Assembly (NCBI GenBank): GCA_050273025.1
Contig: CP158635.1
Coordinates: 19,716,001 to 19,780,000, forward strand
From: Cenococcum geophilum
Taxonomy: Eukaryota
Direction of reading: 5' to 3'
DNA: 64,000 bases
Position numbers and translations under genes: made by a program. The notes below the pieces were generated by a model. The model was not told where the DNA came from, made no database searches, and saw only the letters and a list, made by a program, of their open reading frames with translations. This document shows positions 19,836-54,208 of the stretch, piece after piece. The stretch's first letter is position 1. Every line of letters starts with the position of its first letter.

Positions 19836-20449
19836 AAGTTAGCCATTAAACTAGTAGTAAACTATTACTACTAGAATCTTGTTATTAGGGAAGACGCAGC
19901 CGGATTTGGAGGTTCCTACCCCCCGTTTTAGGAGGCTGTTTCTCCTCGCTTAGACCCATATCTATCGCCGCTTTTACAACATGCTAAGCGTGCCAAGGGC
20001 GGCAGGGTCTCCCTCACCTACCAAACCTAGAAGCGCGCGTGCAGCCCTGTAATACACCTCTCGAAGCTCCCTAAACGTCCCTTAATGGCTATTTAAGAAG
20101 CTATGGACGTCCGCCGCCTACCTAATCCAGTTTCTACCTTCGTCCTTATCCTCCGCCAAAAGCACTACCCTCACCCGACGAAACCTCCCTTCTGCACTAC
20201 GCTCCTTTAACCCTTTTCCCACAGTAGCTACGTATGCATTTTCCCCTATTATTATATCATTCGCTTCTAATACTTAATTTCTAGGTTTCTACTTACGGGG
20301 TTTTTTAGCCCTGTCCCGCTCTTAAGAACACCTATCTCCCGTAGAGCCTTTTTCAGCGTTCCCATTAACAGCAGTTACTCTTAAGCTAGCTTCTGCGTGT
20401 AGGCAACTAGTAGCTACTAAAGCACTAAGACACCACGCGTTTAACCACC

Positions 20450-23192
20450 ATGCCCTTTTAAAGCAAGAAATGGTAAAATATAGATTTAGCCTCTAGCTTA
20501 GACCTTAAATTAGGCAAGCCGTCTTATTCTAAGCCAGCTTCAGACTTAGATTTAAGCTCTAATTTTAGAGCTAGGGAAGACGCTAAGTCTAAGGGGGAAT
20601 ATTTACGGCAGAGGATTATATATTATAAGGGTTAAGGAAGAGCAAAGTTAAAACGGAAGCCCTGGTCTACTTCTCTTATTAAGCGTAAGTTTTAGAATTA
20701 GGAAAAGTTCGTTTATATTTAGACTAAGATTTACCTTATAATACTAACGATTTATATTTAGGTTCTACCTAAAAGTTAAGTCTAACCCAACCAAGGCCCT
20801 TTATTAGTGTATGGCCGACACATTTAAAATATACCTTAAATAGCGCGTAAAGAATTCTTAAATTAAGAAGGAAAGCGCGATTAAGGTATATTAGAGACGA
20901 ATTCTATATAAATTTATAGATATAGCAGGCCATAGTATAAATAATAGCGCAGAACTTAATATATAAGATATAAGGCAATCTTTAACCTTTAAAAAAAAAA
21001 ACTTAGTTAATTTGTTATAGTAGATTCTAACCTACTTAATGCTAATATACGAGCTAGATACGTTAGAGAAAGAAAAGTATGCAATATATATGTAAGACTT
21101 ATATACAATTATTAATGCCTATTAAATAATAGACGCGAAGCCTCGCTATAGTTGTTTTTGAGTATAAATAAAAGCAATCCTCCTCCTCTCTAGTGCCATG
21201 GCAATAAGACCCTAAGCTCTTATTAAAAGTTTAAGCGCGAGAGGCTCTAATAAAGCGCTTTTATATAAATATATCACAATCCTAAAAGTTCGCGATACGA
21301 AAAACTTTAATTAAACTATAACTATCGCCCTCGTAAGTCTTGTGTATATTAAGAATTCTAGAGGCATAGGTAGACGGTATATAGTAACGCCGATTAAAGA
21401 CGGCGCGAATGGCGCTAATAGACCTATAGTAAGAGGTTTATTTTCCGTCTTAAAAGCATCCTAGCTTTTTATATTCTATCCCATCTTATAAGCCTTACTA
21501 TTACAAATAATACATTTCGGCGCTATTATACTTCGCTAGAAGAGATTTTTAAACTTAAAATCCTAGCAAATAAAAAGAGTTTTAAAGTAAAGTTTAAGAA
21601 GCAGATGGAGGAATAACCTATCTTTTAAGATATTAAGATAATAGCTAGTTATAGGGGAGTATCGGACACTAAAGCATTCCCTTACCAGAAATGCCGCGAT
21701 TACTACGTGTGGTTAGGCCAAGTGGCCGGGTTTAAATAATTGCTTAAACTTTACTAGCTATAATAAGCGTCCGGAAGGAAATTAAATAGTAAGTGTCTAA
21801 TTTAATATAAGTGTATCTATTAACTAACCTTTCTAGCTACCCTTACTCTAGAAGAGCGAAATTAGATAATAGGTTATCACGGTAATACCTACTAACGGTT
21901 TTATTTACCTAATTTAATTAAGCGCGATTTCCAGTTAATCTACTTTAGGACTTCATCATAGGACAACCTTATCTAATATACCGTATAAATGGGGATTTTA
22001 AGGGACGAGCGGGCCTCTATAGGTTTAACTAACGAGCAGAAGCTTAAATTCTAGTTAGAACTTAATTAACACCCTAATATTTTATAGCTTTATAAGAAAC
22101 GAGAGTGATATAAGCAAAAGATCAGGAGCCGAGGATATTACCCTATTAACGCCGCGAAGGGAACGAAACTATATAACCGTTATAACGAAGCCAGACGTAA
22201 ACTTTATAGTATTATAAACGTCCTACGCAAACAAAAAGAGGACTAGGTTATTCTTAATTTTCACGACGCCATTAATAATTACAATATTAAAAGACAGCTT
22301 AATAGTAGCGTTGGGACGGATATTCTGTAAGGGATATTATTGCGGACACCTCGGGTTGCCCTCAGGACAACCCCCGGACGCCCCTCGGATAATCGCCGGT
22401 CACGTGCCGGAGGCACGTGCCCGTAGTATATAGTCTCCACGATCCCAGAGGCCTTACCTCCTCAAGGATTCGTCTCTCTCACCAATCTATCTTATTCCAA
22501 TCGTGTCCTTATAGCCCCCTGTCTACAAGATCCCCTCACATATTCCTACCCGTTTAGCTATATAGTATAAATTTCGCGAATATGCTGCTATTACTAAACT
22601 ACTATCTTAGCCGCTAAACGAGCTTGAAGAAGGGCACGCTATAAAACTCCGTATAAAGTTTATCCGCAATCTTATTAAGTATTATAATTAACAAGAGAGC
22701 TAGTAGAATAGGATCCTAAGCAAGGCTATTGGACTTTAACTTAGGTCTAAAGTAGACCAAAGTATAGTAGGCGTAAAAAGAGGTGTAAGTAACACTAATA
22801 CTGGTACCTATTAATAGGCAAAGCGGCAGAAAGAATATATTAGCTTAGACTTGCCTTTTTAAGAAAACCTAGATAAGATATAGAGCGCGGTCCTAATTAA
22901 GGAAGAGGGTATTAAGATAATACAGCTACCGTATCCTATAACGTTTACTAATCTTATTTACCTTATCTATATTAGCGATAACCGACTCTTAACACTAAGG
23001 CAGACCCGCCTATTTACGAAAAAGGATACACTATAGAAGCATCTTAATAATCACGTTATAGAAGGAATGTTTAGGTAGAGGTTCCGCTATAAGCATCCTT
23101 GTTATTTAGAGTGGATTAAAGGACTTAAGCATTTTAAAAATCACGCAGCCCTTATGCATGGCGTATGGCATTTAATTAAAAGGCACCACTAG
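20450..23192 (+). pseudogene. DUF3435 tyrosine recombinase (Starship captain-like) with C-terminal C2H2 zinc-finger region; RIP-inactivated and interrupted by a solo LTR
   Basis: CCACC-ATG at 20450 and an acidic N-terminus. De-RIPed motifs: LLLSxATATRPxALIES...GSNKALLY (~21175-21270); LG.VAGF...L.LY.LRR.SG (~21710-21780); ERNQIMGHHGNTY.RFYL...I.RDFQ.IYFG (~21855-21950); CPIC..., KH...H, C.HP.C...HFKNHAA..H. Confidence 0.85.
22326..22540. mobile_element. Solo LTR (family A), 215 bp, 5-bp TSD TATTC
   Basis: Ends are TGTAAGGG...CCCTCACA, with TATTC at 22321-22325 and 22541-22545. Confidence 0.95.
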
Positions 23193-23429
23193 GTAAGTCG
23201 CCTTGCTTATATAAGAATCCTATACTAACCCTCTAGTACTAATAGAAAGGTATATAACTAGTAAATTTAGAACTATGCGTTCCTTATACATAGGACCTTT
23301 TCCTAGTTATTTCTCGCTTATCTTATTATTCTTTACTACTTTTTATTTTATTTTAGTCTATTATCATCCAATCCTATTCTAGTATTTAGTAGAATAGATA
23401 TAATAACTAGGATTTTATAATTTGTCTAG

Positions 23430-23555
23430 GGGGCAAGGGGTAATAGGTGAGGGTAAAGGTAAGGGTGAGGTAAAGGATGAGATAAAGGGTGGGGTGAGGG
23501 GTAAGGGGTAAGGGGTAAGGGGTAAGGGGTAAGGGGTAAGGGGTAAGGTAAGGGG
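23430..23555. repeat. (GGGGTAA)n-like simple repeat
   Basis: About 6-7 consecutive 7-mers plus degenerate copies between the convergent DUF3435 and BTB genes. Confidence 0.8.
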
Positions 23556-23579
23556 AGGCTGATGGGAGATAGATAATAC

Positions 23580-24703
23580 AGTTGCTATATAATATCTAAC
23601 GGATCGACTATAGACGAGATATATATTCGAATTTCTTAGATTAACCTAAACGATATAATGACTTCTTACCTAAGCCAATCTCCTAAGCTATGTATCTTTA
23701 CTTATATATAACGCTCGCACCTTTTGCAATAAAGTATATAAGGGTAATTAGGGTCGGATAGATGACTACTATCCTTAATATAATATATAAACTCGGCTCT
23801 GTAACTAATATTATAACAGGTCCTAGTCGTACAGAAGGTATTAAGACAGTTATTAATATTTTTGCTTTTGCGCTCAGCCGCAATATACCTCGCCTTGGCG
23901 GATTAAAGCAGTGATTCTATTTATTATAGCTGAGATTAAACAGCTTGAAGTTTTAGTATAAAATTTTCCTCCATGTCCTTAGATGCGGTAATCACTATCC
24001 ATATAATGCTAATAGCGAAATTGCTTATAACATCCAGCTCTATAAAGTCCCTAAGTTTAATAAGCTCTTTAATATACTTGGCTGCTGTTAAGGTGATTAT
24101 ATTATACAATACTAAGTCGCCTATTAGGCTAAAGACATCCTTAACAACATTAGGAAACCCGTTTATGGACTAGCTGGTTCCTAGAATATATTAGATTTTT
24201 ATATTTATAAGCTCTTTTAGCTATGGTATATTATAGTAATTGGCAATTATATTAATATAGATGTGACGAAGTATAATATGGGCCGTCGTCGGCCGTATTA
24301 TTGTGTCTTTATTATTGCCACCGCTATTATCTAGTTTAGATGGCGATAAGGTATCGGTGTTGTCAATATTAGATCCTTACTCCTCCTTACCATTCTTATA
24401 GTCCCTCTTGTATATAAATTGGATTATCCTCTTAACGGTGCCGGAATTGAACTCGTTAATATTTATAATGTTAGTTACCGCCTCCTACCCATTAGTTAGT
24501 TAGTTAGGGTTAATTCTACTAGATATTTGGTTAGCTTTTACCTAAAAGCCTCTATTATAGGCAGCTGTAAGCATAAGAGATTAGGTATATATAATCGCTT
24601 TATAGACTTTAAACTCTAGCCCCTAGTATATAAGTTTTAAGTTGCTATATTTCCTGCTATCTATAAGCTACGCTAAGCTAAACGGAATACTCTTAGATGG
24701 CAT
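23580..24703 (-). pseudogene. BTB/POZ-domain protein, RIP-inactivated
   Basis: ATG at 24703, then ...KYSNLKLIY*GLEFKVYKAIIYT*S.ML.AA...GF* (=YSDL.L.C.G.EF.VHK.I.C.QS...AAC.G.F), an intron, and EA....I.I.EF...TVKR.IQF.YT.DY. Confidence 0.85.
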
Positions 24704-27700: not shown

Positions 27701-28809
27701 TAGGAGTAGGGGTAGCAATTAATAAAGATTGTTAAGAGGTTATAGTGCGTGCTATATGCCATTTATAGGCCTTATTGTAGCTAGGTAAAAAGTCTGGGCC
27801 GCTAGATATATTAAAGGGCAGAAAGGGCACTATAAATACATTTACGTGGGATAAGATGCCAAGCGTTTAATATATATAGCGGCCCGCATAGCGGCCATTA
27901 TATATATTAATCTTATTTTAGCGGTATATTTAAGATATTAAAAATATTACTACTAAATCCTCGCCAATAAAAATGGTAAAGCCTAAGCGTTAGGGTGTTA
28001 AATATTTAAGGCTCGTTTAAAATGCTAAGCATTTTAATATTTATATATATTAGCAAATTAGTATGCCTAGCGCGTGAAATATAAATAGGCCGATAAGCCT
28101 ACCCCTCTAAACTGCCCTACTACTTAGATAATTTTACTTACAGCGAGCTCGTAAAATTAGATATAGTAACGCAAAAAATAAGTAAGCATAAAACTCTAAT
28201 AAAGGATTACCGGAATAGGATATATATAGTATCCGTAATTAATAAGTCGTATATAAACCTCGTACGATTTAGCCTAGAAGAGGCGATATAAAAGATCTAG
28301 AAGACTACGCCAACCAAAACTATACCTACTATTGCCTTAACAGACACTACGGAAAGTAATAAAGCGCGTAAGCTTGCGAAAATAGTATATTTAATATAGT
28401 TTACTTTAGTATAGTAACTCTAGCGGCTAACGCAAATAAGGAATTTAAGTTAAAGATACTAGAAATACTACTAAAGTTAGGAGTCGGAGTAGTTAATATA
28501 AACTCTTTACGTATAGGCCTAACAGTCTATTTTACGGGACGACGCATTTTAATGCAATATCTAAACGATTTAGTAGTGTGTATATTAGCTTTTAGCCCTT
28601 ATTAGGACTCCTAGGTCCCGCTTAGTTATACTATCCCGCATTTAGAGAGCGGGTAGGGCTGTTGCTGGGCTAGTTTATAATGGGTAAAATGGAACGGGAG
28701 TAGAGGTGGCGTTAATATAATAATTATGGTGCTAATTATTAGCTAAGCTTAAACTGCTGGTTCTACTTAATAAGGGATATTATTAAACTATTATTGTACC
28801 GCGTTAAAA

Positions 28810-30620
28810 ACCTAAAACCGGGGTGTATAACAATATAAGAGTTTTAGAAGAAATTTACTAATACCTATAAGTAGAACTTATAGCAACCGCACTGTTAAGG
28901 GACTTATTATATACCTATTACGCGGAGCTATAGCTTATTTATTCGCTGTCACTAATCGCCGGTAGCGTATTACCACCAATTTGGTCTCTATACACCTATT
29001 GCGCCTTATTATAGCCTATCTATTCGCTGTTACTAATTCCTAGTAGCATATTACCGTTAATTTGGTCTCCGTATATTTATTGCGCCTTATTATAGCTTAT
29101 CTGTTTGCTGTTTCTAATTGCCAGTGGCGTATTACCGTCGATTTAGTCTCTATATACCCATTACACCTTATTATAGCTTATCTATTTACTATTGCCACTA
29201 ATATCTATAGAACTAGAGCTGCTAGGGTTTCCATTTAAACACGCTGTGCTATTTATATTTAAGTATCTTTACGTAAGGTTGCCGCGGGTATTAAAAGGGG
29301 TAGGGAAATCTTATAACAAGCGTTCTTGACTAAGGCGTAGTATAAGGGATTTGCCCGCCGGCTTAGAGGCTTAAGGATATTATTTAATAAATCGCAAAGA
29401 AGATGTTCTATAGCCTATAATAAATTAGAGATACTACTATTTGGAAGTATAACTACTCTTATATATCTACATGCTATTTATTAAGGCCGTTATTAGTAGC
29501 TAAAAAGGGTGCGATATTATTAAATCTGCGCGTTAATAATTATACGCTAATATAAGATCTCCAGGTTTAGCAACTTCTACACAGGGGCGTTTATAAGGGG
29601 AGGAAATTCGCTTTTTTGGGCTCGGCTAGGGCGGGTTAGTAGTGCTAAGATATATTGGTCTAAGAGAAAGCATCTAACTAGAATAAAGCTCTTAATACTA
29701 TCCCATCCAAACTAAACATTTTTGCGTAATTTTAAATATCATAAAATAAGACCGGTGCCGTAAAGCCATAAGAAAATCGTTAATGTTAGGTAAATTTAAT
29801 CTTCGGCAGGCGTTATAAGTAAAGGCTAAAAGAACTAATAGCCCTACCCCTTTAAGCCTTTATATAATATAAAGCTTAATTCTATATCTAATAGCTAAAG
29901 CCGCTTTAGTGACGTCGTAACATCCTATACTTCTTATAAATAATATAATATAGCTAACTCCCTTTACGGAAGTGGCTTAACTTTTAACTAAACTTTTAAT
30001 CCTTAACGCACCTATAGACTTTAGTTGCCATTTCTTAAAAGAATCCGCAAGTATCTATTAGCTAAGAAGTTTTTAAAAAATAGCGTTATTTAATAAATTG
30101 CTATTGGTAGTAATAAGATCCTTAATAAGGGGATGTTTGTTTAACCACTTTAGTTCGCCAATAATGCCCTTTAGATCTTTCCCTATAGATATATTAACGA
30201 ATGTCTTAATCTTAGAGAGGTTTACTAATAATGTGTTAAGCAGGTTCGCACATCTAGGTAAAAGGGAAGGTAGAGAAGCAACCTCATTCCCTAAAAAAGG
30301 CTAGACACTCCCTAAAGAAGGCTAGACGATATTATCCTTATTTCCTAAAAAAGGCTAGACATCCTTACTCTCTAAAGAAGGCTTAACAACATCCTTATTC
30401 CCTAAAGAAGGCTAGACACTCCCTAAAGAAGACTAAACGGCATCATCCTTATTCCCTAGAAAAGGCTAGACGACATCCTAATTCCCTAGAGAAGGCTAAA
30501 TATCCTCACTCCCTAGAGGAGCGTAAAGCGAATTATAGTGGCTATATTTATTCTCTAAGAGAGGCGGTAAATATTAAAAGGTGTTAATAGGAAGCTTCTA
30601 GAGCCTTTAAATAGTATATA
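28810..30620 (-). pseudogene. RIP-degenerate hypothetical gene with internal peptide repeats
   Basis: A continuous minus-strand frame after de-RIPing, with N-terminal short repeats (30280-30520) and four C-terminal 27-codon repeats. Confidence 0.5.
28910..29200. repeat. 81-bp tandem repeat, ~3.5 copies (27 aa on the minus strand)
   Basis: The TAGCTTAT/TAGCCTAT anchor recurs at 28931, 29012, 29093 and 29174. Confidence 0.88.
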
Positions 30621-30815
30621 TAATATTAGGGAGATAAGGTTAAAGCTACTTATTAAAAGCATTATAGATAAGATCTAAAGCTACTATAATGCTAAAGTCT
30701 ATAATAGTGGGTTGTAAGTTATATAATTTATATTAAGATAAAAGAGTAGTCAAGTGCAGTTCCCCTCCGCTCTTAATTCCCTAGTAGGTCGCTAGCGCCC
30801 CTAAAACTTAGAAGA

Positions 30816-30886
30816 GCCTTACACCAATTACATCGCTTTAATTAAGTATCGCGTACTTAATTAAAGCGATATAATTGGCGCAAGGC
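30816..30886. repeat. Inverted repeat, 33-bp arms with a 5-nt loop
   Basis: GCCTTACACCAATTACATCGCTTTAATTAAGTA-tcgcg-TACTTAATTAAAGCGATATAATTGGCGCAAGGC. The mismatches are transitions only. Confidence 0.9.
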
Positions 30887-31589
30887 CCTTATTAGAGCTG
30901 CGCTAATATAGTGGCAATTATTAACCTCGCTTTTGCTTATAATGCGTAGTCAAAAATTAAACCTCTCTTTTAGCTAAGATAGGAGGCGATATAAGTCGCA
31001 AACTTAATTAGGCGTGCAATATAAAATATTTAGTAATACAGCTTATTTTATTGCAGAAGGCCGTAAGCCTTAATACTATTAGAGGATTCCTTTTCTAACT
31101 AATGCGTAGGATGTACAATTTATAATAATTTCTTCCTTAAGGAGCTAAAGAGTAAGACGCCTTAATAAATCTAAGGATGCTATTTAAAGGAAAGAACACG
31201 GAAATACCTAATATATAGAGCTAATTTCCGCCCCATTATACTGGGGATATATAATTGCCTTTATCGCCCACTCTGCTAGTTACCTTAACGCGTCTTCTAT
31301 ATCTTTCATTTATTACTACCCTACTTTACTATTTTTACCACTCCTTTTAAACTATTCCCTAGCTTATCCTATTTCCGCTAACCATTTACGGCCGCTCTTT
31401 ACTCTTTAATATGGATACTTATTTAACTATTAGCTTGCTTATTAAAGCCGCAACTTACTAAATTACGCCGACTATTAGTTTCTTAAAGCGTTATATTTAG
31501 CTGCCTCTTATATTAATTATTGGTACTTTAACAGCCGCTTATAGTTAGGATCAAGATTCTAAATACGGTGCATTAATTATTAAGCTTTA

Positions 31590-33710: not shown

Positions 33711-34275
33711 ATAAGCTAGGAGGTTATAAAAGCTAGGGGCTCGTAGGAGCTGGGGGATCCTACGAGCTAGGTAATTATATAAGTAGAGTGGTCTAACCTA
33801 GCGCCCTCTAATTAATTCCTAGCGTATAAATAGGGTATTAATAGGTTTAATAACTTCGGCTTTAATTATGCGAGCTAGATGCTTATAGGGGCTAGCCAAT
33901 CCTATAAGCTAGGTAATTATGCGAGCATAGTGCTTATAGGAGCTGGGCAATCCTATAAGCTAGGTAATCGTACGAGCTAGGCAATCGTGCAAACTAGGTA
34001 ATCGTGCGAGCTAGATACTCGTAGGAGCTGGCCAATTCCACGAGCTAGGTAATCGTGCGAGCTAGGTAATTGTGCAAGTATGGTGCTTATGGGAGCTAGG
34101 TAATCCTACAAGCTAGGTAATCGTGCGAGCTAGGCGATTATGCGAACTAGATAATTGTGCGAGCTAGGTAATTATGCGAGCTAGGTAATTGTACAAACTA
34201 GGTAATCGTGCAAGCTAGGCGATCGTATAAGTAGAGTAATCGTGCAAGCAGAGTAATTATATAAGCAGGGTAATC
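33711..34275. repeat. 17-bp minisatellite (GAGCTAGGTAATCGTGC)n
   Basis: More than 20 units in register between ~33870 and 34275. The flanking motif AACCTAGCGCCCTCTA is repeated near 33796 and 34277. Confidence 0.9.
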
Positions 34276-37003: not shown

Positions 37004-38355
37004 AAATTTCTTATAAGAAAAGATTTTTGTAATTATATTCTTGTTTTCTAGCGTTAAGAATTAAGGCGCCAATTAGGATTTCTTTAGCTTAGTATTATTT
37101 TTCTATCTAGTTGCTTCCATATTAAGAGTATCTCGTTATTATTTACATATATATTAAATTAAAGTTAAGAACTCGCTTATAGTAAAGTCCTCCACCTTTA
37201 TATACTTGGCAGCAATAAGTTAGCCACCCTATAACTCGCTAGTCCTTTACAAAGAATTAAAGTTAAGGTATTAAAGTCTCTGGCGTTTTTATAGGTAACT
37301 AGGGTGCGGGTTAACTCTAAATTTCATATTAATAAGGTAGGAATGTTAAGAATAAATACAGGATATCTCTCTTAATATTAGCCTAAGTTATAACTCTAAA
37401 AATAGGATCTTGTTCTAAGAACTAGATCTAATTCTAAAGACTCTATCCTATCCCGATTCTAAGCTAAACATACTAAATATAACCAAAAAGGTATAGCGTT
37501 AAGCTAAGCGGTTCAACGGTCTTAAAAGAGAGGAGCTATTTTTAGTTATAGCTTAAGTTATAATTCCAGAAACGGAATCTAATTCTAAAACCAAGATTTT
37601 AATTTAGGTTTATAAAGCAAACCAATTAACTACTATAAAAAGGGCGTAATCCCAAAAAAGGATCTGGTTCTAAGAACTAGATCCTAGTTATAGGAAATAG
37701 GTCAATTAAGCGCTATAAAATAGGGTTGGCTATATCTATATTTGGTATATTAGGTTTAGCTTATTTTAGGACCAGCCACGTAATTAATTATAGGTGCTTA
37801 CACGACTAACCCAATAATTAACCCACTATCGCCAGCTATACCTTACCTAGCGCCTTTCAGTATCGCTATATTAAAGCCTTACTCTATTTAAGCCTTACGC
37901 GTTACGGAATAAACTAAAAGCCAATAATTATAATTACTAATAAATACTGCCTACAACTTTCTAATAATACTAAAACCCTATATACGCACTATATTTTTAA
38001 CCTATATAACTAGGACTATAAACAATATTTCTACACTTTAGGTTATTATAGCTTAGCATTTAACTAAGCCCCGCAAAGCCTTAGTCTAAGCCATATTAAA
38101 TCGGCTTAACTTTTCTACGCCCAACCTTTAAATCCTCCTCGCATTCCACTCGTACCTTACTTCCTCCCTTACACTTTCCTCTTTCGCTATTCCCTTATTT
38201 TAAGACGCGCCCAATATATATTTAACCTCCCTATACTTATTTACTTCTCTACTATTATACCATCCTTATATACTAGTCTCTTTAATCCCCCCTCGCCTAC
38301 CTACCTATCTACCACGCTAGCCCTCCCAACGTAGCTCTTAGCGCGTTTACTCACA

Positions 38356-40759
38356 ATAGTAAATCTCTTTAGATTAGAGATAATTAAAACAAATCCTATT
38401 AGGGAAGGACTAAATAGCTTTCGCAATTTATTTAACTTAACTTATTAAGATCTAGGCATCCCTAGCTCTCTAAACTCGTTACGCTAGATAGGCTATAAAG
38501 GTAATTATTAATTTATCTATTATAGGTTCTCTCTAATATATATAGGGCTTAAAAATCTTATAGTTAACCTTATTCTAGCATTATAGAACCTTCTTACTAC
38601 TTAACTACTTCCGTCTAGCGCTAGCCGCAGCACTCTTTATAGTAACCTTTTCCGACTTCTCCCTTTAGTTGATTTTAACGACTTTAATATTAAACGGTTC
38701 ACCCCTTTCTTAAAAACAGTTATTAATCGCGAATCGGATAAGGACGTTTAGAGTAATACTATTACCACTATAATAGAGTCCACGCCTCCCCCCTAACCGC
38801 TGCCACTCCATATTTAATAAACCCTATATTTATATAATACAAGCAGCTTTACTAACTCGTCCAAATACAGGAAATACGTAGATTATATTCTAAAGGAGGA
38901 GCTAGGCTCTCTTTACGTGGGGATTTCTAGCTTATATAAAGCATTCTTTAGGGGAGTAGAAGGTCTTAAAGAGGCAAGCGCCGCCATTTTTAAGAAATAT
39001 AAGGAAGGGGACAATCCACTATACGCTAAGGGCGGCTAGCGTAACTGGCCTAAAAGTATAGAGCAGATTAATGTCCTAAAGTGGTTTAATAACCTAATTA
39101 AATTATTTTTAGGCTTTATAGAGGAGTATAGGTCTGCCCTAAAGATATAATAAACGCTTATTGCATATACCGAGCAGCCCTTATAAGGGTCTATAGCAAA
39201 GTAAAAGCTAGATATTAGTTTTATGGATGATCTAATAGCTAGCGAAAGCTCTTAATGCTATTAGTTGTATATACTTATACTAGGAGAGCTAAAGAGTAAT
39301 CTAAACACTAATATAGCTTCGCAGGCATGGTTTAATTTAGGAAAATATATAAGAGAAGTCTTCGCCGCTTAGGACACTCATCGCTTTATTCTAAGCTTTA
39401 CCCTCTATAGATCTATTATGCGGCTATAGGAGTATAACCGGGTAAGAGGCATCGCATTATTACTATTCAATATTAATAAAAACGGATTATAATTTACCTT
39501 AGCGATATTAGGATTTCTCTAGATAAATAAGGAGTAGCTTAGGTTTAACCCTACTATTCTAACATCAGACGGCAAGCGATATATTAAGGTCGTGCGCAAT
39601 AATCAGACTAAGCATCTTATCCTTAATAAACTTATAAAGCGGGCACGCTATATCGCCGGTCAAGCGACTACTTACTAGAAAGTATACTATAAGGGGGACA
39701 CCTCTAAGATACCCCTCGTTATTAAAGACTTATAGCAGTACCTATAGCGCAAGAAAGAAGGTAAACTGCTACATAAGGTAATAGAGAAAGAAGTGGTTAA
39801 TATAGCTAGGTACTATTACCACGAGATAGTTTATATAGGCGGTAAAGAAGATAATATTTATAATAACGTCTATAAGGGGCTAGATATTATAAGAGCGATA
39901 AACTATAAGCTAAAAGACTTAATAATGCCTCTAAGACCGGCTGGAGCGAAAATCAGTATAAGGCAAGGCCGAAGTTTTAGTAGAAAAAGGTCGTCCAGCC
40001 ACACCAACGCCCTATTACCGCTTAGCAAGCGTATATATTTAGGCTCTCCACCTAAAGGCGGAAGGCGCCTTACAACCCTAAATTAAGTATATTAACGTAT
40101 TATTACTAGGGACTATAAAAAGCCTCTTTATAAGGCAAGCTCTCGGGCTACAATACTTACTGCACTAGAGGGTGGCATTAAAGGATATAAGTCTTTATAT
40201 ACGCGGGCCAGCATTATCTAATATAACATTTTAACAGGCAACCTTATAATAAACAAGGAAAATAATAATCCTTCTTAGCCAGCATTCTTAATCGACTTCG
40301 ATCTTATAATTAAGGAGCAGTAAAAAGGGCCTTTAGGAGCGCAGGGCAAGACCAGCATAAAAGCGTTTATAGCGATTAGAGTGCTCCTAGGCGAGATATA
40401 TTTAGCTTAGCATAATTTTAAGTCGTTTTTTTAGGTACTATTCTAGATATGCATTTACTATAATAGACCTAATAAGAAAGGCAACGTTATTAATAGGTTT
40501 AATAAGTGGAATTCTATAGATACGGAAGAGCTAGCTAAGATAAAAAAAAGAAGAAGTGGATAATAAAGGGGATTTTCTTAAGAATACAGGTAATAACTTT
40601 TCGCCGTACTATTAGCCACTAATCCCTTAGGTTAATAGATTGCGGAAGGTAGTATTTCTAAGCGGTAGGAGGCAAAAGGGAAATAATAAAAAACTTCCTT
40701 CTTAAATAAAGGAGGTGCTTTAGGAAGCAAGGAAGGATCTAAAGGTGCTAGTAGAGTAG
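38356..40759 (+). pseudogene. FunK1 / Pkinase_fungal kinase, copy 2 (full length, RIP-inactivated)
   Basis: M(ATA)VNLFRLEIIKTNPI.EGL..FR start and an intron at ~38500-38545. De-RIPed motifs ESTPPP.P, GELKSN, GRAT..WK, VIKD.W, GII.CDISTGNLM, FLIDFDL, KTGT.AFMAIGVL, HDFESFFWVLFWICIHY; stop at 40757-40759. Confidence 0.92.
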
Positions 40760-41169
40760 ATAGAATAATATTTTATTACTCTTCCACTATATAAGTGAAG
40801 TTTTACGGAGATTTGGGCGGCTAAGGCTAGGTAGTAGCCTTAGTTAAAACGTATATAAAATAGCATAGGGCGAGTTACCTAGGCTAAATAAACCCAAAAA
40901 AGAATAATATTTCATTTTCCTATATTCTTCTACCGCACGGGTTAAAGTTTTGCGGGGATTTAGGCGGTTAAGGCTAGGCAGTAGCCTTAGTCAAAACGCA
41001 TATAAAATAGCGTAGGGTAAGTTGCCTAGGCTAAATAAACCTAGGAAAGCAGATAACCTAATCTTCCGCTAGGCCCCTATACCCTACCATCCCGTATAGG
41101 CTTTAAATTTCTATAAAACACGTAACCTACTCTCTAGCCTATTAGAAGCCGCCTTATACTATCTAAATA

Positions 41170-41990
41170 GAGGCTATTAGAGAATTAATCCCTTACTCTA
41201 GCCAATCCCCTACTTAAATAAGTCCCCTATTTAAACAAATCCCCTACAGGAGCTAATGCCTACGTATTTCGCCGCCCTATAGGAACTAATCCCTTACTCT
41301 TAATAATCCCCTACAGGATCCGATTCCCTACTTTAATAAATCCCCTATAGGATCTACTCCCCTACGGGATCTACTCCCCTACGGTAACAAATCCCCTACG
41401 GGATCCACTCCCCTATAGGATCTACTCCCCTGCGGTAATAAATCCCCTACGGTAACAAATCCCCTACGCTAACGAATCCCCTACGGGTACCAATGCCCAT
41501 ATATTCTACCGCCCTATAGGAACCAATCCCCTACGGCTTATATTCCCGTACGGCTTTTGCTCCCCTATAGGGGCCAATAGCTACATTTTCCTCTCCCGTA
41601 CGGGAACTAATGCCCTATAGCTTCCGTTCTCTATTCCTAGATCTATAGATACTATTAGCTATATCTTCCACTCCCTTACAAAACAAATCCCCTATAAATT
41701 CCGTTCCTATATATAGTAACTATATCTTCTACTACCCTATAAGAACTATACCCTATAGCTCCTGCTCCTATATAGCTTTTACTCCCCTACAAGAACTAAT
41801 GGCAATTTCTTCTACTTCCCTACGGAAACTAATCTCCTACAGCTTGCGGTTCTCTATAGGGGTTAATACCCGCTTTCTCCGTCGCCTTATAGCTTTTAAT
41901 TCCTTACGGGAACCAACGCTTATATTTTCCACTCCCCTATAGGAACTAATGCCCTACAGCTTCTGTTCTCCTGTTCCCGGATCTATAAAC
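41170..41990. repeat. 17-bp minisatellite and longer direct repeats between the kinase and AAA 3' ends, copy 2
   Basis: Reverse-complement homologue of 7075-7470 (CCCCTACGG...AAAT units). It also carries an extra ~345-bp block and a ~150-bp tandem duplication (40790-41045) that copy 1 lacks. Confidence 0.82.
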
Positions 41991-42130
41991 AATTTGCCCA
42001 CGCCACTGCCTACCGTATAGGTCTTATTACCACAAAAGTAAGAAAGTAATTTTAAGAAAGCAATAAGTAATAATGCCACCAGCTACAAGATCTATAAGAC
42101 GTATTTAATACTCTGTATATATAAGCGAAT

Positions 42131-45000
42131 CTATATATATAAGTTTAAATTCTTAACTAATTTAGCACCTTTAAAATCACTTTTAAAATCTTAGCTTAAT
42201 ATAAGAGCCTTACCTAAATGCTTATATGTAAGTTTCTCCCCCTTACTTTTAGCCAAGCTATAACTAATCCGTATAGTGTTCTTAATCTAATATAGTATAT
42301 TAGCACTAGCCTCTAAACTTTTTCTTAAATATTGCCTTGCCTGTCTTTTGTTTAATTAATAGTCCAAAAGCCGCTCTATATCCTTTTTAGAGATATTAGC
42401 AGCAGCATCGGCTTGCTTTAGGAAGGTCTTCTATACCTACTCTCTTACTGGTCTCTTTAGCTCGTTATATCTAAGTATAAGATATATTCTACTCTATATA
42501 GCTGCATTAAATACGGTAATTTTATTTGTTATAAGAAACATAATACCTTAGAAATACTCCATCTATTATAGGAAGACGGATACTAGGCTATTACGTCGGA
42601 TATTATTTAAAGTTCTTTCTATAAGAAAGACATCGGCCTTATCTAAAAAAAGGACAGCGCTCTAGCGGTAAACATTTTTAACTATTAGAGCCAGTTTTTA
42701 TTCTAAATAGGCTAGATTTATATTAAGGTCTCCTATATAAGCCTTCTTATAGTTAAACTAGTATATAAATACACTTATAAAGGGGAACAAACTATATAGA
42801 GGGGTCTCCTCTAAGATTCGGCAAGTGCTTTAGCTGTTAATATCTTTCCTACCCTAGGTAGGCCACTAAAACGGTCAGCCTTTAAAACAGCTAATGCCTT
42901 ACTAGAAAACTTACTATAGCAAGAAAACTAGGCCTTTCCCCTTCCCTTTAATTATATTATTAAACTTTAATTTCCTAAACCTAGACTAGTAGCTCTTTAT
43001 AAGTCCTTAAAGCACCATTTTCTTATCCTCCTTAATTACGAGTGACTTAAATACTAAGGCATTCCATTTAATGTCCTTAATATTGGCGACGGCAAATTCA
43101 CCTATTAGTGCTTATATTAGTACATATAATTCGCTAGCTCTAGAAAAAGAGTATAAAAAGCCTAACCCTATTTTTTATCTGCCAAACTAAAGGCTAGGGC
43201 TGTTAGTAGACAAATTAGGTACTTATTATTTCCTATCTCCTTAGGAACTAAACCTTAATTCTTTACGTCGCCTTACCAATTAGTCCCTTAATCAATTACG
43301 CTTATTCCGTATATATCTATAGTAATTAGCTACTTGCTATAGTTAGAATTCTAACGATAAAATGCTATCGCGTCTACTATAATATGGCCGCTTATAGAAA
43401 ATCTTAACGGGCTATCTTTAGTCTAGAAAAACATAATCCCTTTATATTTATAGTGGTTAATGCCTCTTAAAGACACGAACTTCTAGCTATTGCTAATAAG
43501 ATCCTACTTTATCTCAGCTTGTCTCTTATAACGCTCTAGCGGAAATACCTTAAAAGATATAATTTTTATAGTTGAACGGAATTCCGGAATAGAGAGGGTG
43601 GTTTTTACCTTACTAAATGCCTTCCTATTATAGCTAAAATAGTAACAGTTAAGTTTAAAGCTCTTTTTGCTAAAAAGTAAGGTTTTAAAGTTGCCTAAAT
43701 TATATATAAGGCATCTTGGTTAATCCGAGCCTTTATAAATTATAAGGATATGCGTATTTAGTTTAAATAAGGCCTAAAGGAGATCAAAATTAATTTCGCT
43801 ATGGTTTAGAAGCGGCAGGAGACTATTAGTTATAGGCGCAAAATGGTCTTTAAGGAATCTTAGTAACCCCTAAAGGTGCCTAGCGCTAATTAAGTTAGGA
43901 GAAAGACTCTCCTAGTGTATTTTTAACTGGGGTAGGAAATTAAATATAAGGTTTATAGGGATCTAGAAGTTAAATTAGAATAAGCTATATCTATAAAAAG
44001 GTCCACTTACTATAGGCTTATCTTCCCGAAGGGAGATAGCTTATATGCTGTTTAGCACTACCTATAAGGCGTCTTTTACTTCTCCTAAATTTATACCTAG
44101 GTATATGCTATAGTCTTTCTTGTCCTTTTCTAGCTTAAAGTTAGTATCTAAGTTGATATATTTAAAGGCACCTAAGAGATAGACTAAATTTCTTCCAAAG
44201 GATATAAATATACTAATTATATATATTACGCTCACTTAACATATCCGGCGAAGTCTCTATAGTCTTATATTAGCAGTTTTGTTTATCCTAGCTGTAGTAG
44301 ACGCTACATTAGCGTATTTCCAAGTATGTTTTAGGGATTTCGTAAGCATATATCTCATTTAACACCTTAACTTTAACCTTGGAACCTCTTACTTTGGGTA
44401 TCTCTTTAACCCCTAAACTTATAGGGGGAGGTAGAGGAGGTAGAGGAGGTAGAGGAGGTTAGGCCGCTTAGACTATCTTTAACACAGCTACAAGTATTTT
44501 AACTATAAGATACTGCGCTAACTGCCCATAATGCAGATGCGTTTAGCTTAGGCTACCAGGGGGGGTGTTTATGCTATTATAAGGCAGTAAAGGCGCTGGC
44601 GTAACAGGCTTAGATATAACTAGCATTATTACTCTATAAAGCTTTAATAACGTAATACTAATCTAAAGTGCAAGGTTGGAGTAAGGAGCTAAGTGTAGAT
44701 AGTATCGTTTCTTTAAAGGATCCGCCTTCTTTTATACCCATTAATAGGACCTAAGTTACTACTATACCGCAAATATTTACTACACCGCTTACTTACCCTA
44801 ATTAACCTTAGATAGCGCTAGACTATATATCTTTAATAGCGTTCCAACATGTTAGAGAGTTTAACTAAGTTAAGCCATAGGGTATATACTAGCTCTTATT
44901 ATAGGATAAGCCTATAATTTGTATAGCTATAGGGGGTATCGCGAAGGATTGTATAAATGATCCCTATAAGCTAGGTGGACGTTATAGATCCGTAATAGTG
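42131..45000 (-). pseudogene. Fungal AAA+ ATPase, copy 2 (more complete; start uncertain)
   Basis: Same Walker A/B, TTNR and NGRQIKN motifs as 4937-6817. It extends further 5' through a Pro-rich tract (44425-44460). Confidence 0.88.
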
Positions 45001-48000
45001 TGCCTGCTATTTCTCTAAGGGGCGATATTTATTTAGCGGAGGCTTTAGACTAATAAAGAATTAATCTTACATTAACTATATAAATATTAGTATAGCTTAC
45101 GTTAGAATAAGTCCTAATTAGGGGACAAAAAGAAGAAAGATATAATAAGTTTAATAATATATAGAGTGCGGTATATTAGTAGGTTAAGATATTATAACCC
45201 ATAAAACAAACTTAAGGTAATTAGCTAACTAAGTTTAGTAATCTTACCCCTAGTTACCCCCTAGTTACCTCCTAACTTCCCCCTAACTTCCCCTTAACTA
45301 CTATTAACTACTCTTTAAATACCTACTAACTGCCCTATAACTGTTATAAACTTTCCATTAACTTATTATTTAACTACTATAATATTTAGCCGCCTCTTAA
45401 TCTATTCATTTTAGCGCGCCAATCTTGCCTCTTCGCCAATCTTAAGATATAGAGTTGCCTTATATCGTGCTGCAGGCGAAAGAAAAGGATTCCTTTTCCT
45501 ACTAAGATGGCTATAATAGAGTGACTAACTTAGAGCTTAAGACTCTTCTTAAGCAGAGCTAAGAAATAGTTATTTCGCTTAAAGCCAAGCTAGATAAGCG
45601 CCAGATCGTAGCAAAGCCCTAGTTACTTGGCGTTATTAAGTACAGCAAGAAACTCTAAAAGAGTGTCACAAATCTCAGGATCTTAGGACGGCTGGATAGT
45701 AGAGCGGCTAAACTTGCTATTACGGCTGCTGGGATTCTAAAGACGAAATAGATAACTCGTAAGTTAAATATCTATTAAACGTTCCTTAGCAATATCCTTC
45801 ATTACTACAGTTAGGGGTTAGTTTTGCTATACGCTATAAGCCTTAGCAAGTAAAAAGTAACCTCTTTAAATTCTTAAGATTGGATTAGGCTTATATAGTA
45901 TCTTAAAAGCAACTAAGCCACCTTTAAATGCCCTATCTTAGACTCGCTAGCAGTAGAACATTATATACCTTATAGGAATAGTAAGTTGTATAATCTTTAA
46001 CATAAATATCTCGCTTATCCCGTAAAAGAGGTCTATAAATTAGATCCTTTAGTTACGCCCTCTTAAAAACGCCTATTTCTAAAAGACATAGGTTTAAAAC
46101 AAAAGTCAGCTCAGAGCAATTATACTTATTAATTAGACGTTTATTCTCTAAACACTAATTAGCTGCGCTAAGATACAGTCTAAAATTTACAGAATCCTCT
46201 AGCTAGTCAGACTCCGTAAGCTAAGGCTACAATTAATCCAGTATAAAAAGAAGGAAGTAGTATAGATTTTCCCTCCCTATATTAATAAGGCCGAATACTA
46301 ATCCAAAATAAGATACATTACTAGGCTCTTTATCCACAGCCATAATTTAAACTCGCTCAGCAAATTATAGAGAGATTATAAACCTTAAGTTTATAGTACT
46401 TCTTACTTTCCTATAGTAGTATTAGGACAGCTATTTAAAACTAGTATACTCTTAAGGTGGAGTTCTATTACCATCTATTGACATTATATTAGAGCTAACT
46501 CTTGGGTTAAGCGCGAAAATTAAACTCTCTCTTCAATTATATAAAGCGTTAATTTAATTCGACCTTGCCTTCTATAGGCGAAAATAGCGCACCGTAGGAC
46601 TACTAAATAGCCTGCAGCTCTCACCAGGCCTTATAATAAGGATAACGAAGCCAGTAGGTTCCTTAGGGCCTATAACCATATTTCTTATTATATTACTAAA
46701 GACCCTAACAGCCCCCCCCCTACTGTATATTTTTACTAAAATCGCTTAAACTAATAGGTCCACTAACTCTAGAGATATACTAGTTGTTTCCGGACCTATT
46801 TTAATAGGCTCTTTATACTAGATAGTATTTAGCGAAATATATCTTATACTATTTTAAATTTTGCCTACTAGCTCTAAAGCTCTTTTTTTAAGTTTCTAAT
46901 TATTATCTGCGATATTATTAACAGGAACCCCGCCGTTTATTATCCTAAAGAGCTCTTAATATATGCTATCTAAGCCTAGGTAATAATGGTAACTAAATAG
47001 TTATAGGTTAAAGATAAAAGCAAGGGCTAATAGAGAGAGCTACCAACTTTAGAGAGATAAGGATTATATTAGGATCGGAATAATAGAAAATATAAATATA
47101 TCGTCTAAGGAACGCGCTAAAGAACTACGGCGTATATTATTACTAGCCATATAATACACATAGATAAAGTAGGATCGTCTTACCTTAATAGTTAAATACT
47201 TTAGATCTGTGGCAAGTATAGCGGGGTAGGCTATAAAGCGGATAGCGTTAAGATTAAAGGTTAAAGTTAGGAGAAACGTTATATCCTTAATAGGCCATAC
47301 CCTACGCAGTGCGCGAAATAGTAACGCGCCTAGCGCATAAAAAGAGAATATAAATTTAAGATAGCTAAGGCTAGTCTTAGGCGTTAATACCCAACTCTAT
47401 AACGGGGCTTAGCCTTAAGCTTTAGTTGGTATTATCACGTATATATAACGTAAGGGTCTACTACCTAACCGCGAAAATTATATAGCCGGTAAAGGAAGCT
47501 ATATAGATAAACACGCTAATATATAGCTGATGCGAGTTAACGCGGACACCTTACCCTTTTTATTATATAATGCTTTAAAGGATTGCATAAACTATAGCCT
47601 ATTCTTATTTATAGACCCGATATCTATACTTAATCTCTTAACCTATTAATAGTACTAAAGGTTATACTAAATATACTTAATCGGATAATACAGCATAATC
47701 CTATAATTTATGGATTCTAAATAAATGGACTAAAGTTATGGGCGAAGTAGGTTGTTCTTTAAAATTTCGCATTATTTAAATTAAGCTTACAGCTTTAGGC
47801 GATATCACGATTATATATAGTATAGCCAGCAGATATCTAGTTAAATTACTTATAAACACTTATAACACTTTATTAGCATATATACCTAAATCCCTCTGCC
47901 TACTAGCGCTCTATATAGTTTATAAGGGCTTAACTTTCTTAAATTGGAAATTATAGGACGTTATAGGAAATGCGCTATAAATAGAATAAGCTAGAAGTAA

Positions 48001-48019
48001 AACCTAAAGCTAGAAATAA

Positions 48020-50204
48020 AACTTCAGGCCAAAAAGAACAGCACTATTACTACCGATTCTTCCGCCTAGTAGGCCGCCCCCATTTCTTCTATATAACAGG
48101 CTAAGCCTTTAATTTTAAACAGTAATGCCCCTATAGTAATCTAAGACTTCTTATTAGAAAGCTATCTTTAATCTAGTCCCATAGAAGATTTTATTTCCCT
48201 TTTAGGTTAGTAAGTAACGCGTCTTCCTCTTTAGTGAATTTTATTCTAGACTTTAGCCCTTAGGGCTTTAGCTTCTAGGGCTGCTTAACTAGGTTAAAAG
48301 GTAAAGGGAATTATTAAGGAAGGATATTTAGTGTATATAACCCGTCTTTCTAGCGCCTAAAAGCTGCTTAAATTAAAATTTCTTCTAAATTAGCATTTAA
48401 GGCGGCTCCCAGTATTACTTTATTAGAGTTAAAGCTAGAGGTAGCACTTAGCAGCAGTTTTTGGGTACGGAGGCGATTATATATAGGGGATGTAACCCGC
48501 TTACAATAATTGCTAGTAAGCGTAGTGCTTTAGTCGGATACATACGTGGATAAAATTAAAGGGGAATAGTAAGACCGCTAGAAATAATGCTTTATAGCAT
48601 ACTTTACCTTTAATTAACTAGTAATAGGGGTTAGTAATCCTCGTCGCCCTATATACCCGCGGGCCTTATTATCCTTATCACTACTACTACTATTACCGTC
48701 CCTAGAGTTATTATTATCCGTATTATTACTATTATTACTTCCGTTGCCATAATTCCCGGCCTTACCTTCGTCCGTAACGTTCTTACCGTCCTTATTATTA
48801 CTTTCTTTAGTTAAGCCGTTTACAAAATCGTCTAAAATATAATTACAACTATTATTAGTCCTATATTCTGGTGGTCTAGTATTATAAGGAGATATATAGT
48901 GCCGGGGGGAGGGGCTAGTGGGCCGCGTAGTAGAGACCGCTTACTCCTTAATACCGTTATAGTTATTAAGGCTAAGGGTAGGAGAGCTAGAAGGCGTGGT
49001 CCTCTAGGAAGTAGGTAACCTTTATTACTTCCTAGGTTATACGCTCTCGCTACTCTTATTAACGGAAGTATTAAAGATATAATTAATGCTACCTAGCTAA
49101 TTAAGCTAATCGGACCTCCGCTTCTTTAACTTCTTAGCTCCTAAAGACTCTTAACTAGCAGCTATTAATATCCTAAGCTTCTACCTAAACTATGGAGCAG
49201 TTCCGATGCGACGCCCCTTAGCTAAATTATCCGTTTAATTGCCGTCTAGCGTTAAGGGTGTGGTATAATTATACGTAGGTGCATATACCTCCTCTTCTAG
49301 CGCTTCTAACAAAGGTAGCTCTTTATTATCTTTATCGCCCTTACTACTACCGTTATTCCCGTTATCTACTAATTATTAAATAAGCCATTATAAATTAAAA
49401 GGGGAAGCGTATACCTAATCTATAAGATATTAGTTGATTATTGGCTTTGTCAGCTTTATTATTAGCGTTACTAGCTTTATTACCCTTAGTTTCTAAGTCT
49501 AGATTGGCTATATTATCTTTAATAACTATTAAATTTGCTACTAGTTGTTAAAACTATATATTTAGAACTGCTAGGGAAAAAGGGAGAGTGGTAGGGTAAT
49601 TACTGGGATAATTACCTTAATTACTTCTTCTAGAGACTTAACTGTCATTTCCATCCCTATAGAAATCTTCTTTATTGTCCTCATTATCCTTATTATCCTT
49701 ATAATACTTATTATTAGCTTTCTTATAATTATATATAGGGTCTATAGGCGCTTTATTAGACGGAATATCTAAATTAAGGCCCTAGGTGGAATAACATGCC
49801 GTTAAGTACCTAAGCTTATAATACTTCTTAACTTTTTAGGGGGAAAAGAGGTACTCCCCTACTCCTCCTTTTAGGCTTACTGCTCGCGCTTTTCTTAGGG
49901 GCCGTAATTATATAGTGCTAAGATAAAGCTGTTAATTTTCTAGGGGGACTAGTATAGAAATTATTCTTATTAAGCGAAATTTTAGAAGAAATACGAAATA
50001 AAGACTAAGGTAGTGCTAACATTATTATTATTAGAGTTACTATTGTTTTATAGCTTTTAAAAGCTTTAAGGGGGAATTAAAGGTCTTTTTAAGTGCACGT
50101 TAGTCCTCCCTTCGCCACTAGCACTCGCCTATCGCCCCTTGCCCTTTACCCCTTGCCTAGGTTTCTTATTAAATTAAAGCATTTAATATATACGCCTCCG
50201 GCAT
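48020..50204 (-). pseudogene. Myb/SANT-domain protein (C-terminal domain), RIP-inactivated; start uncertain
   Basis: The minus strand at ~48115-48255 reads KSRIKFTKEEDALLTNLKGK*NLLWD*IKDSFLIRSLRLL*GHYCLKLK (=FT.EED.LL..LK....L.W..I...FP.RS..SLQ.HY..KLK). A long acidic low-complexity region precedes it. Confidence 0.8.
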
Positions 50205-52138
50205 AGACTAGGGTTAATTGCCGTTTATAGGGTATAAAGGTTTATAAGGGCTTAAATTCCTAGCACCTAATTAATACCCTTAGCAAATTACGATTAAACC
50301 GTATCCGCCCATCTAAGCTAGCATATTTAGCTCTAACATAGCTATTACATCTAGCCCCTTATTAGGAGGTTAGTAGCTTAAGTTTTCTACCTTTATTCCT
50401 TAGTAAAGGGCAGTACTAATATATCTATTTACTTCCCGATAATACTAATCCGGCTAATCTTCTACGCCGCTTATATTAATAGGGTATAAAGCCCCGCTTA
50501 TATATGCGTATTGCGAGCTATTTATAACGGAAGGAGGTAGTATTATTATTAGTAGCGGGCGGGGTTCTCTAATACTAACCGCCTAGTAACAGATATGCCT
50601 ACTACTCACACGGTGATCGTATATAGATATATAAATATGCTAGGTAAAGGACTATATAGGGTACTGCATAAGGTGCTGCATAATGCTCGCCCTCCTAATA
50701 TAGCTGGCTAGTATTAGAGATTCCTTCGCAGTTATACCGCAGTGCCGCAGATCTATTATATGCCTAAAAGCTATAACCTTTTAATTTTAATCCGGGTGGT
50801 TCCTACTATAGCCCTATAGCTTAGAAGGCCGGATTATTAATCTTTTACCGCTCTACTACTAAGCAGTTAGGCAGAGCTAATAGCCCCTTAGCCCTAAACT
50901 AGCAGATTAAACAGTATCTTTAAAACATCCGTGGTAATGCAACTATACTATTAGGCAGGCATACATGGCCACCTAAGCGACACTCCATATAATGTTTGTT
51001 TAAATAATGCCTAACATAGCCCTATATAGGGTGGTCGCTTAAATCGGCAACGTCTAGTTGCTTTTCTACTGGGTAGCCTAGTAGGCATACTAGCTATAAT
51101 ATAGGTGGCTTTAGCTATTAGTAAACGCTAAAGCGGGTTGTCTAACTAACAGTATATCCTAGGTAAGAAAATAGCATATAGGTTAGCTAAAACGAGTGCG
51201 ACATAAGCTCGCTTAAGCCCTTAAGGGGGCGGATACGGCACGCCTATCTCTTCCTACCTTAGAAGGAGATATGCGGCAGAGTTAAATAAGATAATAGTGC
51301 TAACGCGGCTAGTAACTGCGGAATTCCCCTAACCCCCTTCTTATGGGATAGTTGCGGACTAGCGCCATCTAGAAGGCGAAAGGAGAGAGGGTGTATATAA
51401 GAGAGAGAATAGAATTATAAGGATATAGACGCGCTTAGCGGACAGAGGCGGGGCTAAAAGAGCTTAATAAAAATTAAAGCCATTAACTCCAGAGGCAGGA
51501 ATTAGGAGAGGAGGCTAAGACCATCTATATATTACCGTAGAATAGAAACTCACCCATTAGAAAGGCCGCAGTTAATTATATTAATTATTAGTTTAAGATA
51601 TAGGGGAATAAAGCAATAAGCGGGCTAGACTTATATACGCATTAGCGCTAAAGGGACGGCAGAAATGCCTTAATATAACTATGCCAGGGACTAGCAGTAA
51701 GAAGAGGAGGAGGCGCAGCATTAGGAGAAAGGAAAGATAGAGAATAAGAGGAAAAGTAGTAAGAGAAATGGCCTTTTATGGTTAAGGTTAAGGGGCAGTC
51801 TTGGCTTAGCTAGGGTTAATAAGCGAGGGCGCCTTGCCTGTAAAGGAAGCCTCTATTTCCTAATACAGTTTCCTACATAACAAAATAACTAAAAGGATAA
51901 TAATTAATAAGTTCCACGAGGTGTTTAAAACCCAACCTACTTAGTAGGCTAATAATAATGTAATGGAAATAGCATAGCTAGTGTAGTTAGAGTAGCGATC
52001 CCCTATAATAAGAGTGTGTTTTAGTATAATGTATATATATGTAGACAATATACAACTGTTTAATATTTTGTGATATATTATCTTAGTGTTAACCACCGTA
52101 TAGAAGTATAGGCCACCTTATATATAGTACCAATATTA

Positions 52139-54133: not shown

Positions 54134-54135
54134 TC

Positions 54136-54208
54136 CTAGCTAGATTGGGTAATTAGACGTCGCGAATTTAACTCCTAGGCGTGGTGGGTTCGATTCCCAC
54201 TTGTCGCG
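54136..54208 (+). other. tRNA-like fragment (T-arm / Pol III B-box)
   Basis: GTGGG-TTCGATT-CCCAC forms a perfect T-stem/loop at 54184-54200, and a weak A-box-like TAGCTAGATTGG lies upstream. No complete cloverleaf was found. Confidence 0.35.

Follow-up and report, generated by a model that had tools for sequence, protein, structure and literature searches.

We analysed a window of 64,000 nucleotides from Cenococcum geophilum (assembly GCA_050273025.1, contig CP158635.1, positions 19,716,001 to 19,780,000 of the forward strand; all coordinates below are counted from the first letter of this window). The window contains a giant DNA transposon of the PlavakaB type, which has split a 6.3-kb repeat and is itself interrupted by a block of 32,013 bp. 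The block begins with a dead DUF3435 tyrosine-recombinase gene, the captain-type gene of Starships. A previous reading made from the letters alone (the sequence-only reading) had proposed that a Starship lies nested inside a giant Plavaka element with a DDE transposase. We examined this proposal by self-comparison of the window, by profile scans and by alignment with other copies of the Plavaka.

Beyond roughly its first 2 kb, the whole remainder of the window is AT-rich and bears the signature of repeat-induced point mutation (RIP), with TA/AT values of 1.3-2.1 and (CA+TG)/(AC+GT) values of 0.37-0.69. RIP is a fungal defence that mutates repeats and produces transitions only. Nearly all reading frames across the mutated part are disrupted, and raw frames were unusable owing to their stops; for Pfam scans, frames were therefore translated with stops read as X. 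The direct scans of the block took in both strands apart from 40561-43900 on the plus strand and 19801-22300 and 38901-40400 on the minus strand, and the homologous copy A of the 6.3-kb repeat (4801-10200) was scanned against Pfam in all six frames. Positions 1-2000 form the sole stretch of normal GC content (0.56) and hold an open frame (3-1313) that continues past the window start. Rfam and tRNA scans of the window gave no match.

A giant PlavakaB transposon splits a 6.3-kb repeat

Self-comparison revealed that positions 37723-44012, when reversed, match 4937-9944 and then continue directly in 62553-63499. The first stretch is therefore an uninterrupted copy of the 6.3-kb repeat (copy B), and the second copy (copy A) was split by an insertion of 52,608 bp at 9945-62552, the PlavakaB-type transposon including the block. 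The left part of copy A, the DNA hit by the Plavaka (4937-9944), matched 38773-44012 with 74-87% identity in self-BLAST, and the right part (62553-63499) matched 38724-37723 in inverted orientation. The insertion has inverted ends of 14 bp, TATCGGGAAAATAT / CATCGGCAAAATAT, which agree at 12 of 14 positions, or at 13 of 14 when the C/T mismatch at base 1 is attributed to RIP. It is flanked by a 2-bp target duplication, TT, and the uninterrupted copy B has TC at the same spot. Read on the opposite strand, the right end is CATCG; the left end is TATCG, with a C-to-T change of the RIP kind, so that four of the five terminal bases fit PlavakaB.

Within these ends, a transposase relic at 12270-13139 on the minus strand matched Pfam PF18759 (E 5.8e-35, 121.5 bits, profile positions 35-317 of 325). 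Together with the ends and the target duplication, this match bears out the sequence-only reading in its naming of the host as a Plavaka element. The right part of the Plavaka holds a ZNFX1-domain relic (56246-56494, minus strand; Pfam PF25396, E 3.8e-8, 33.7 bits against a cut-off of 27), probably from a helicase gene, and the left part holds an SNF2-like gene. This suggests that the Plavaka family carries two nucleic-acid motor genes. When the block is subtracted and the 370 bp that it replaces are added, the Plavaka has a length of 20,965 bp.

The first exon of the SNF2-like gene lies at 18109-19837 on the plus strand, as placed by a family profile, with an intron donor GT at 19838. When 17950-19869 was searched with HMMER against a set of 1.84 billion proteins, 27 matches were obtained, 26 of which were short fragments (41-161 aa, 48-87% identity) that look like other RIP-mutated copies. 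The single intact match was P0024, a protein of 586 aa (E 6e-5) that carries the Pfam domain SNF2-rel_dom (PF00176, E 2.9e-18). We built the family profile from P0024 and six longer relatives; on the window, it scored 24.7 bits (iE 3.9e-7) at 19249-19815 and 16 bits at 18109-18543. At the point where the window frame ends, 19837, the relatives P0024 and P0028 terminate, and a third, P0029, reads through the intron-like stretch. With eight SNF2 relatives as queries against the window, tblastn gave one short match only (P0024, E 3e-4). For the SNF2 region at 15-19.9 kb, the Pfam scan found no family and a phmmer search of the PDB no match.

Several short tandem or near-tandem repeats were also seen by self-comparison in the Plavaka and the block, at 10006-10671, 14003-14319, 15603-15923, 28908-29193, 33863-34275, 53790-54123 and 55323-55606. 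The two contigs with other Plavaka copies described below, L001 and L002, align at several offsets to the repeat stretches at 14.0-14.3 kb and 15.6-15.9 kb.

Other Plavaka copies lack the block

Because RIP makes only transitions, we turned the last 58 bases of the SNF2-like exon into a transition-tolerant pattern and scanned it over metagenome contigs. The scan retrieved two contigs, L001 and L002, each of which holds a RIP-mutated copy of this Plavaka with about 90% identity to the window across 8.1 kb (11744/11779 to 19873). Almost all differences of L001 and L002 from the window are transitions, with transition/transversion counts of 534/11, 257/3 and 738/13. The two copies are close relatives of the window Plavaka that were separately mutated by RIP.

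L001 and L002 are collinear with the window through 19870, then carry 370 bp that the window does not have, and match the window again from 51884 onwards (positions 1-563 of L001 at 92.5% identity and positions 1-322 of L002 at 91.9%). The intervening block, 19871-51883 on the plus strand, measures 32,013 bp and is RIP-mutated throughout. It is absent from both of the other Plavaka copies obtained and replaces 370 bp of the Plavaka. The presence of the block in every copy of the Plavaka had been named beforehand as an outcome that would speak against nesting; both copies lack it, so the block is foreign to the Plavaka, a conclusion that these alignments firmly establish.

A captain-type gene begins the block

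The left junction was placed by alignment with L001 and L002 at 19865-19870 on the plus strand, where TTAC (19865-19868) and the following TA are common to the window and the empty copies. Collinearity ends at 19870/19871. The SNF2-like gene is thus interrupted 33 bases past the end of its first exon, inside the intron and two bases after TTAC, in agreement with the sequence-only reading, which had seen the gene break off in an intron-like sequence just after this motif. The left breakpoint has the sequence TTAC TAATAAT A in the empty copies, in keeping with TTAC(N7)A. A breakpoint placed at random in the Plavaka would fall 0-2 nt after a plus-strand TTAC with a probability of 0.019, and after a plus-strand TTAC(N7)A with a probability of 0.006.

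To the right of this junction, a GC-richer leader (0.53-0.55 in 19900-20199) is followed by the dead DUF3435 tyrosine-recombinase gene (20450-22303, plus strand), both as originally described. The domain (about 21458-22303) is in frame with the ATG at 20450 and matched Pfam PF11917 with an E of 9.7e-28 (97.7 bits, profile positions 99-363 of 418). Of the 618 codons in the frame from this ATG, 52 are stops. No recognisable gene of the block precedes the captain, which starts 580 bp from the left junction and is directed into the block; on the plus strand, the one scanned at 19.8-22.3 kb, no other Pfam family was found between 19871 and the ATG at 20450. These observations firmly show that a captain-type gene leads the block and that the left junction lies at a site of the kind that Starships target.

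A word-based protein search with the RIP-mutated captain as query gave no matches, and a pattern of the 5' end of the block found none in genome contigs and none in viral contigs.

The right end of the block and the lost part of the SNF2-like gene

Alignment with L001 and L002 set the right junction at 51883/51884 and thereby corrected the boundary of about 51950-51960 that had been read from the window. Comparison with Plavaka copies, which had been suggested as a check, thus fixed both junctions to the base; the direct repeat that it was also meant to define did not appear at the right end. A plain inverted-repeat alignment of the two block ends gave only weak matches of 16-32 columns.

The Plavaka sequence that resumes at 51884-52110 on the plus strand is the tail of the SNF2 reading frame, past the lost 370 bp. 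The sequence-only reading could not find the missing 3' exons of the SNF2-like gene after 51960. These 370 bp, present in the other copies and absent from the window, explain that failure: the core of the 3' exon was deleted and not displaced. A helicase-C search for the missing part had been recommended; a helicase-C profile applied to all six frames of the window reached at best 1.2 bits, which is noise. A helicase-like string spotted by eye at 51904 was dropped, as it scored no better than shuffles.

In pairwise alignment with full-length relatives, the peptide encoded by the 370 bp gives a weak match to their helicase-C motif region, at the place where this is expected. The L002 peptide scored 37-38 against P0031-33, values that were reached by 0, 0 and 3 of 200 shuffles, and the L001 peptide scored 40 against P0030, which was reached by 1 of 200. 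Pfam found no family in the SNF2 frames of L001 and L002, and there the family profile stops short of helicase-C.

Just right of the right junction sits an AT-rich foldback of about 800 bp (52111-52905) that resembles a miniature inverted-repeat transposable element. Its arms of about 170 bp (52105-52275 against 52930-52757) share 86% identity. The foldback probably breaks assemblies, because L001 and L002 both start inside it.

Contents of the block

The block had been described as a string of cargo relics comprising BTB, FunK1 and AAA genes, and this held for part of them. Copy B of the 6.3-kb repeat (37723-44012), which lies inside the block with sharp ends and unrelated flanks, contains a FunK1 relic at about 39211-40452 on the plus strand (Pfam PF17667, E 4.5e-72) and a DUF7025 gene relic at about 43531-43818 on the minus strand (Pfam, E 2.7e-15). 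DUF7025 we take to be an AAA-ATPase-associated domain; the AAA domain proper had no Pfam match in the scanned frames of the block. Nor did the BTB gene persist: in six frames of 22.3-38.9 kb, Pfam found no family at all.

Copy A, outside the Plavaka, has the corresponding relics, with FunK1 at about 8295-9476 on the minus strand (Pfam, E 2.1e-73) and a weak DUF7025 match at about 5310-5414 on the plus strand (Pfam, E 0.0029). In the 6.3-kb repeat, the FunK1 and DUF7025 genes are thus arranged tail to tail. Neither copy showed a target duplication or inverted ends. Transversions between copy A and copy B amount to 1-1.6%, against about 0.2% between the Plavaka copies; the 6.3-kb repeat family is therefore older than these Plavaka copies.

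A GC-rich repeat of about 214 bp lies at 22325-22536 on the plus strand, directly after the DUF3435 domain. In copy A of the 6.3-kb repeat, a second copy (8081-8294) sits between the FunK1 and DUF7025 genes; copy B has none at the corresponding place. The two copies share 89% identity, with 20 transitions and 1 transversion. The repeat has an internal palindrome and no match in Rfam.

Towards the far end of the block, the sequence-only reading had placed an inward-facing Myb/SANT gene. The motif was recognised by eye at 48104-48238 on the minus strand, where it faces inward at 3.65 kb from the right junction; the gene itself was not confirmed by the profile scan reported below. At 44.0-52.1 kb, none of the frames matched a Pfam family. 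The scanned frames of the block also contained no paired long terminal repeats (LTRs) and no reverse-transcriptase, integrase or second transposase domains.

Order of events and alternative explanations

We consider it fairly probable that the locus is a stack of three dead mobile elements, in which a captain-led block of Starship type lies in a Plavaka and the Plavaka lies in an older repeat. For the block itself, the likeliest reading is a single large Starship-like element that may have received later nested additions, for instance the FunK1-DUF7025 repeat. The proposal of a Starship nested in a DDE giant is supported for a foreign, captain-led block at TTAC(N7)A; for a single 32-kb Starship it goes beyond the data, as the right repeat is missing and 370 bp are lost. 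Entry of the 32 kb as a single unit is not established by the data; a single truncated Starship is their best reading, and one towards which we lean moderately.

On this account, events would have run as follows. A PlavakaB element of about 21 kb, with transposase, SNF2-like and ZNFX1-domain genes, inserted into copy A of the older 6.3-kb repeat, as the split copy shows directly. A captain-led element of Starship type would then have integrated at TTAC(N7)A in the intron of the SNF2-like gene, with the DUF3435 gene at its entering 5' end. The foreign block and its left junction are observed, and the integration would presumably have been the work of the tyrosine recombinase. The far end of the element and 370 bp of target DNA, including the apparent SNF2 helicase-C core, may have been lost later or during integration. 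RIP came last and wrecked all genes, as their disrupted frames attest. The right end is probably truncated, because it has no repeat and is accompanied by a deletion.

Several results weigh against a single Starship. At the right end, neither TTAC nor any direct or inverted repeat was found, and in a RIP-tolerant test for inverted repeats with a reduced alphabet, the observed score was reached by 65 of 200 shuffles. The block substitutes for 370 bp instead of sitting cleanly in its target. Its FunK1-DUF7025 part is a discrete, sharp-ended repeat that also occurs outside the Plavaka with unrelated flanks, and copy B may have entered the block independently and not as cargo. For about 24 kb of the block, Pfam recognised no family in any frame. 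DUF3723 and a patatin-like phospholipase were both missing from the Pfam results for the block, and the Myb/SANT assignment found no Pfam support, with no family at E<=5 on 47939-48388 of the minus strand. L001 and L002 are other Plavaka copies, paralogous or from relatives, and not the same locus in another strain. The helicase-C identity of the 370 bp was not significant by the family profile or by Pfam.

The independent, sharp-ended FunK1-DUF7025 unit and the lack of a recognisable right terminus would also suit a block assembled piecemeal. A compact captain-only transposon of a few kb would have inserted at TTAC, the other 28 kb or so, made up of the FunK1-DUF7025 repeat and repeats that have no annotation, would have accumulated separately next to it or within it, and a deletion would have taken the 370 bp. 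We regard this as possible and distinctly less probable than one Starship-like element, because several insertions would have had to strike one place in a young Plavaka copy independently (about 0.2% transversion divergence), and the scanned frames of the block held none of the LTR pairs or retroelement and transposase domains listed above. Nor does the block have to have arrived by transposition: a break in the SNF2-like gene might have been repaired with a Starship-bearing locus as template or recombination partner, at the cost of 370 bp. Such a repair would explain why the block replaces these 370 bp rather than lying between target repeats, and why its right end has no terminal repeat. It seems improbable given that the left breakpoint falls at TTAC(N7)A, directly before the captain leader and in the orientation expected for entry by a recombinase.

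A repeat mis-assembly could have joined the block into the Plavaka in a region as repetitive as this one. Among the sequencing runs, four of one sample held 0.53-0.59 of the sampled words of 46001-56000, eight further runs 0.24-0.28, eight 0.14-0.17 and four next to none; the shares of 0.14-0.28 belong to runs labelled as a second organism. At first sight this would hint that strains differ in presence or absence of the sequence, but these word shares carry no information on strain differences. That even the best runs hold merely 0.53-0.59 of the sampled words is in favour of an artefact. An artefact would, however, require two mis-joins that jointly removed exactly one contiguous 370-bp piece of the Plavaka, and the RIP-diverged copies, at about 10% difference, are distinct enough for assemblers to separate. 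We therefore hold it to be very unlikely. The intact 14-bp inverted ends and the 2-bp duplication around the composite are compatible with yet another course, in which the block entered the Plavaka elsewhere and the transposase then moved the whole 52.6-kb composite into the FunK1-DUF7025 repeat. The observations do not fix the order of these events. We give this course little probability; if true, it would mean that a DDE transposon carried a Starship.

With one truncated Starship-like element as the favoured explanation of the block, the locus gives a base-resolved view of the stacking of two very large classes of fungal transposon, a captain-led block in a 21-kb Plavaka in an older kinase-gene repeat. 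The stack fixes the relative order in which three repeat families were active before RIP silenced them. It also indicates that a TTAC(N7)A site of Hephaestus type is recognisable even in heavily RIP-mutated DNA. Patterns that tolerate RIP transitions retrieved empty-site copies from metagenomes, and they could be used to date and delimit other dead elements. Knowledge of how Starships or Plavakas work is left unchanged.

Comparison with known systems

We compared the host with published PlavakaB elements. Passages of Kojima 2025 (PMC12730594) give PlavakaB termini of 5'-CATCA..TGATG-3' with target duplications of 2-3 bp. The host resembles these elements in its transposase domain and its 2-bp duplication, with termini of CATCG..CGATG here against CATCA..TGATG there. 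Unlike PlavakaB as described in those passages, it contains an SNF2-like gene and a ZNFX1-domain gene, and its length is about 21 kb once the block is subtracted. The same passages report Plavaka families reconstructed from Agaricomycotina and mention TET/JBP passengers; unlike those families, the element studied here resides in a host that performs RIP, and its SNF2 relatives bear ascomycete names.

The captain side of the block was compared with Hephaestus-type Starships. According to sections of Urquhart et al. 2023 (PMC10104507) and of Gluck-Thaler and Vogan 2024 (PMC11162782), these insert at TTAC(N7)A, and the direct repeats of the family keep TTAC. Like them, as far as these sections describe them, the block has a DUF3435 gene as the first gene at one end, a length of tens of kb and a captain-side junction at a sequence that fits TTAC(N7)A. 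The far side differs from the Hephaestus elements of these sections, in that the right terminus is devoid of TTAC and of direct or inverted repeats and 370 bp of the target are gone. The empty sites differ as well, in that they belong to further copies of the host transposon rather than to this locus in another strain.

Excerpts of O'Donnell et al. 2025 (PMC12256816) list DUF3723 and patatin-like phospholipase among Starship-related genes and place a MYB/SANT gene at the Starship edge opposite the captain. Unlike the Starships of that list, the block has no detected DUF3723 or patatin-like gene. Its Myb-like motif, seen by eye and not supported by Pfam, has a sense opposite to that of the captain and lies near the far junction (3.65 kb), as the MYB/SANT gene of those excerpts would.

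Parts of Gluck-Thaler and Vogan 2024 (PMC11162782) describe nested insertions, Starships that lie within transposons of Class I and Class II, and 'derelict' copies killed by RIP. The RIP-degraded block resembles the 'derelict' Starships of these authors, who also developed starfish. These comparisons indicate that the locus is a well-resolved further example of a described phenomenon and not a new kind.

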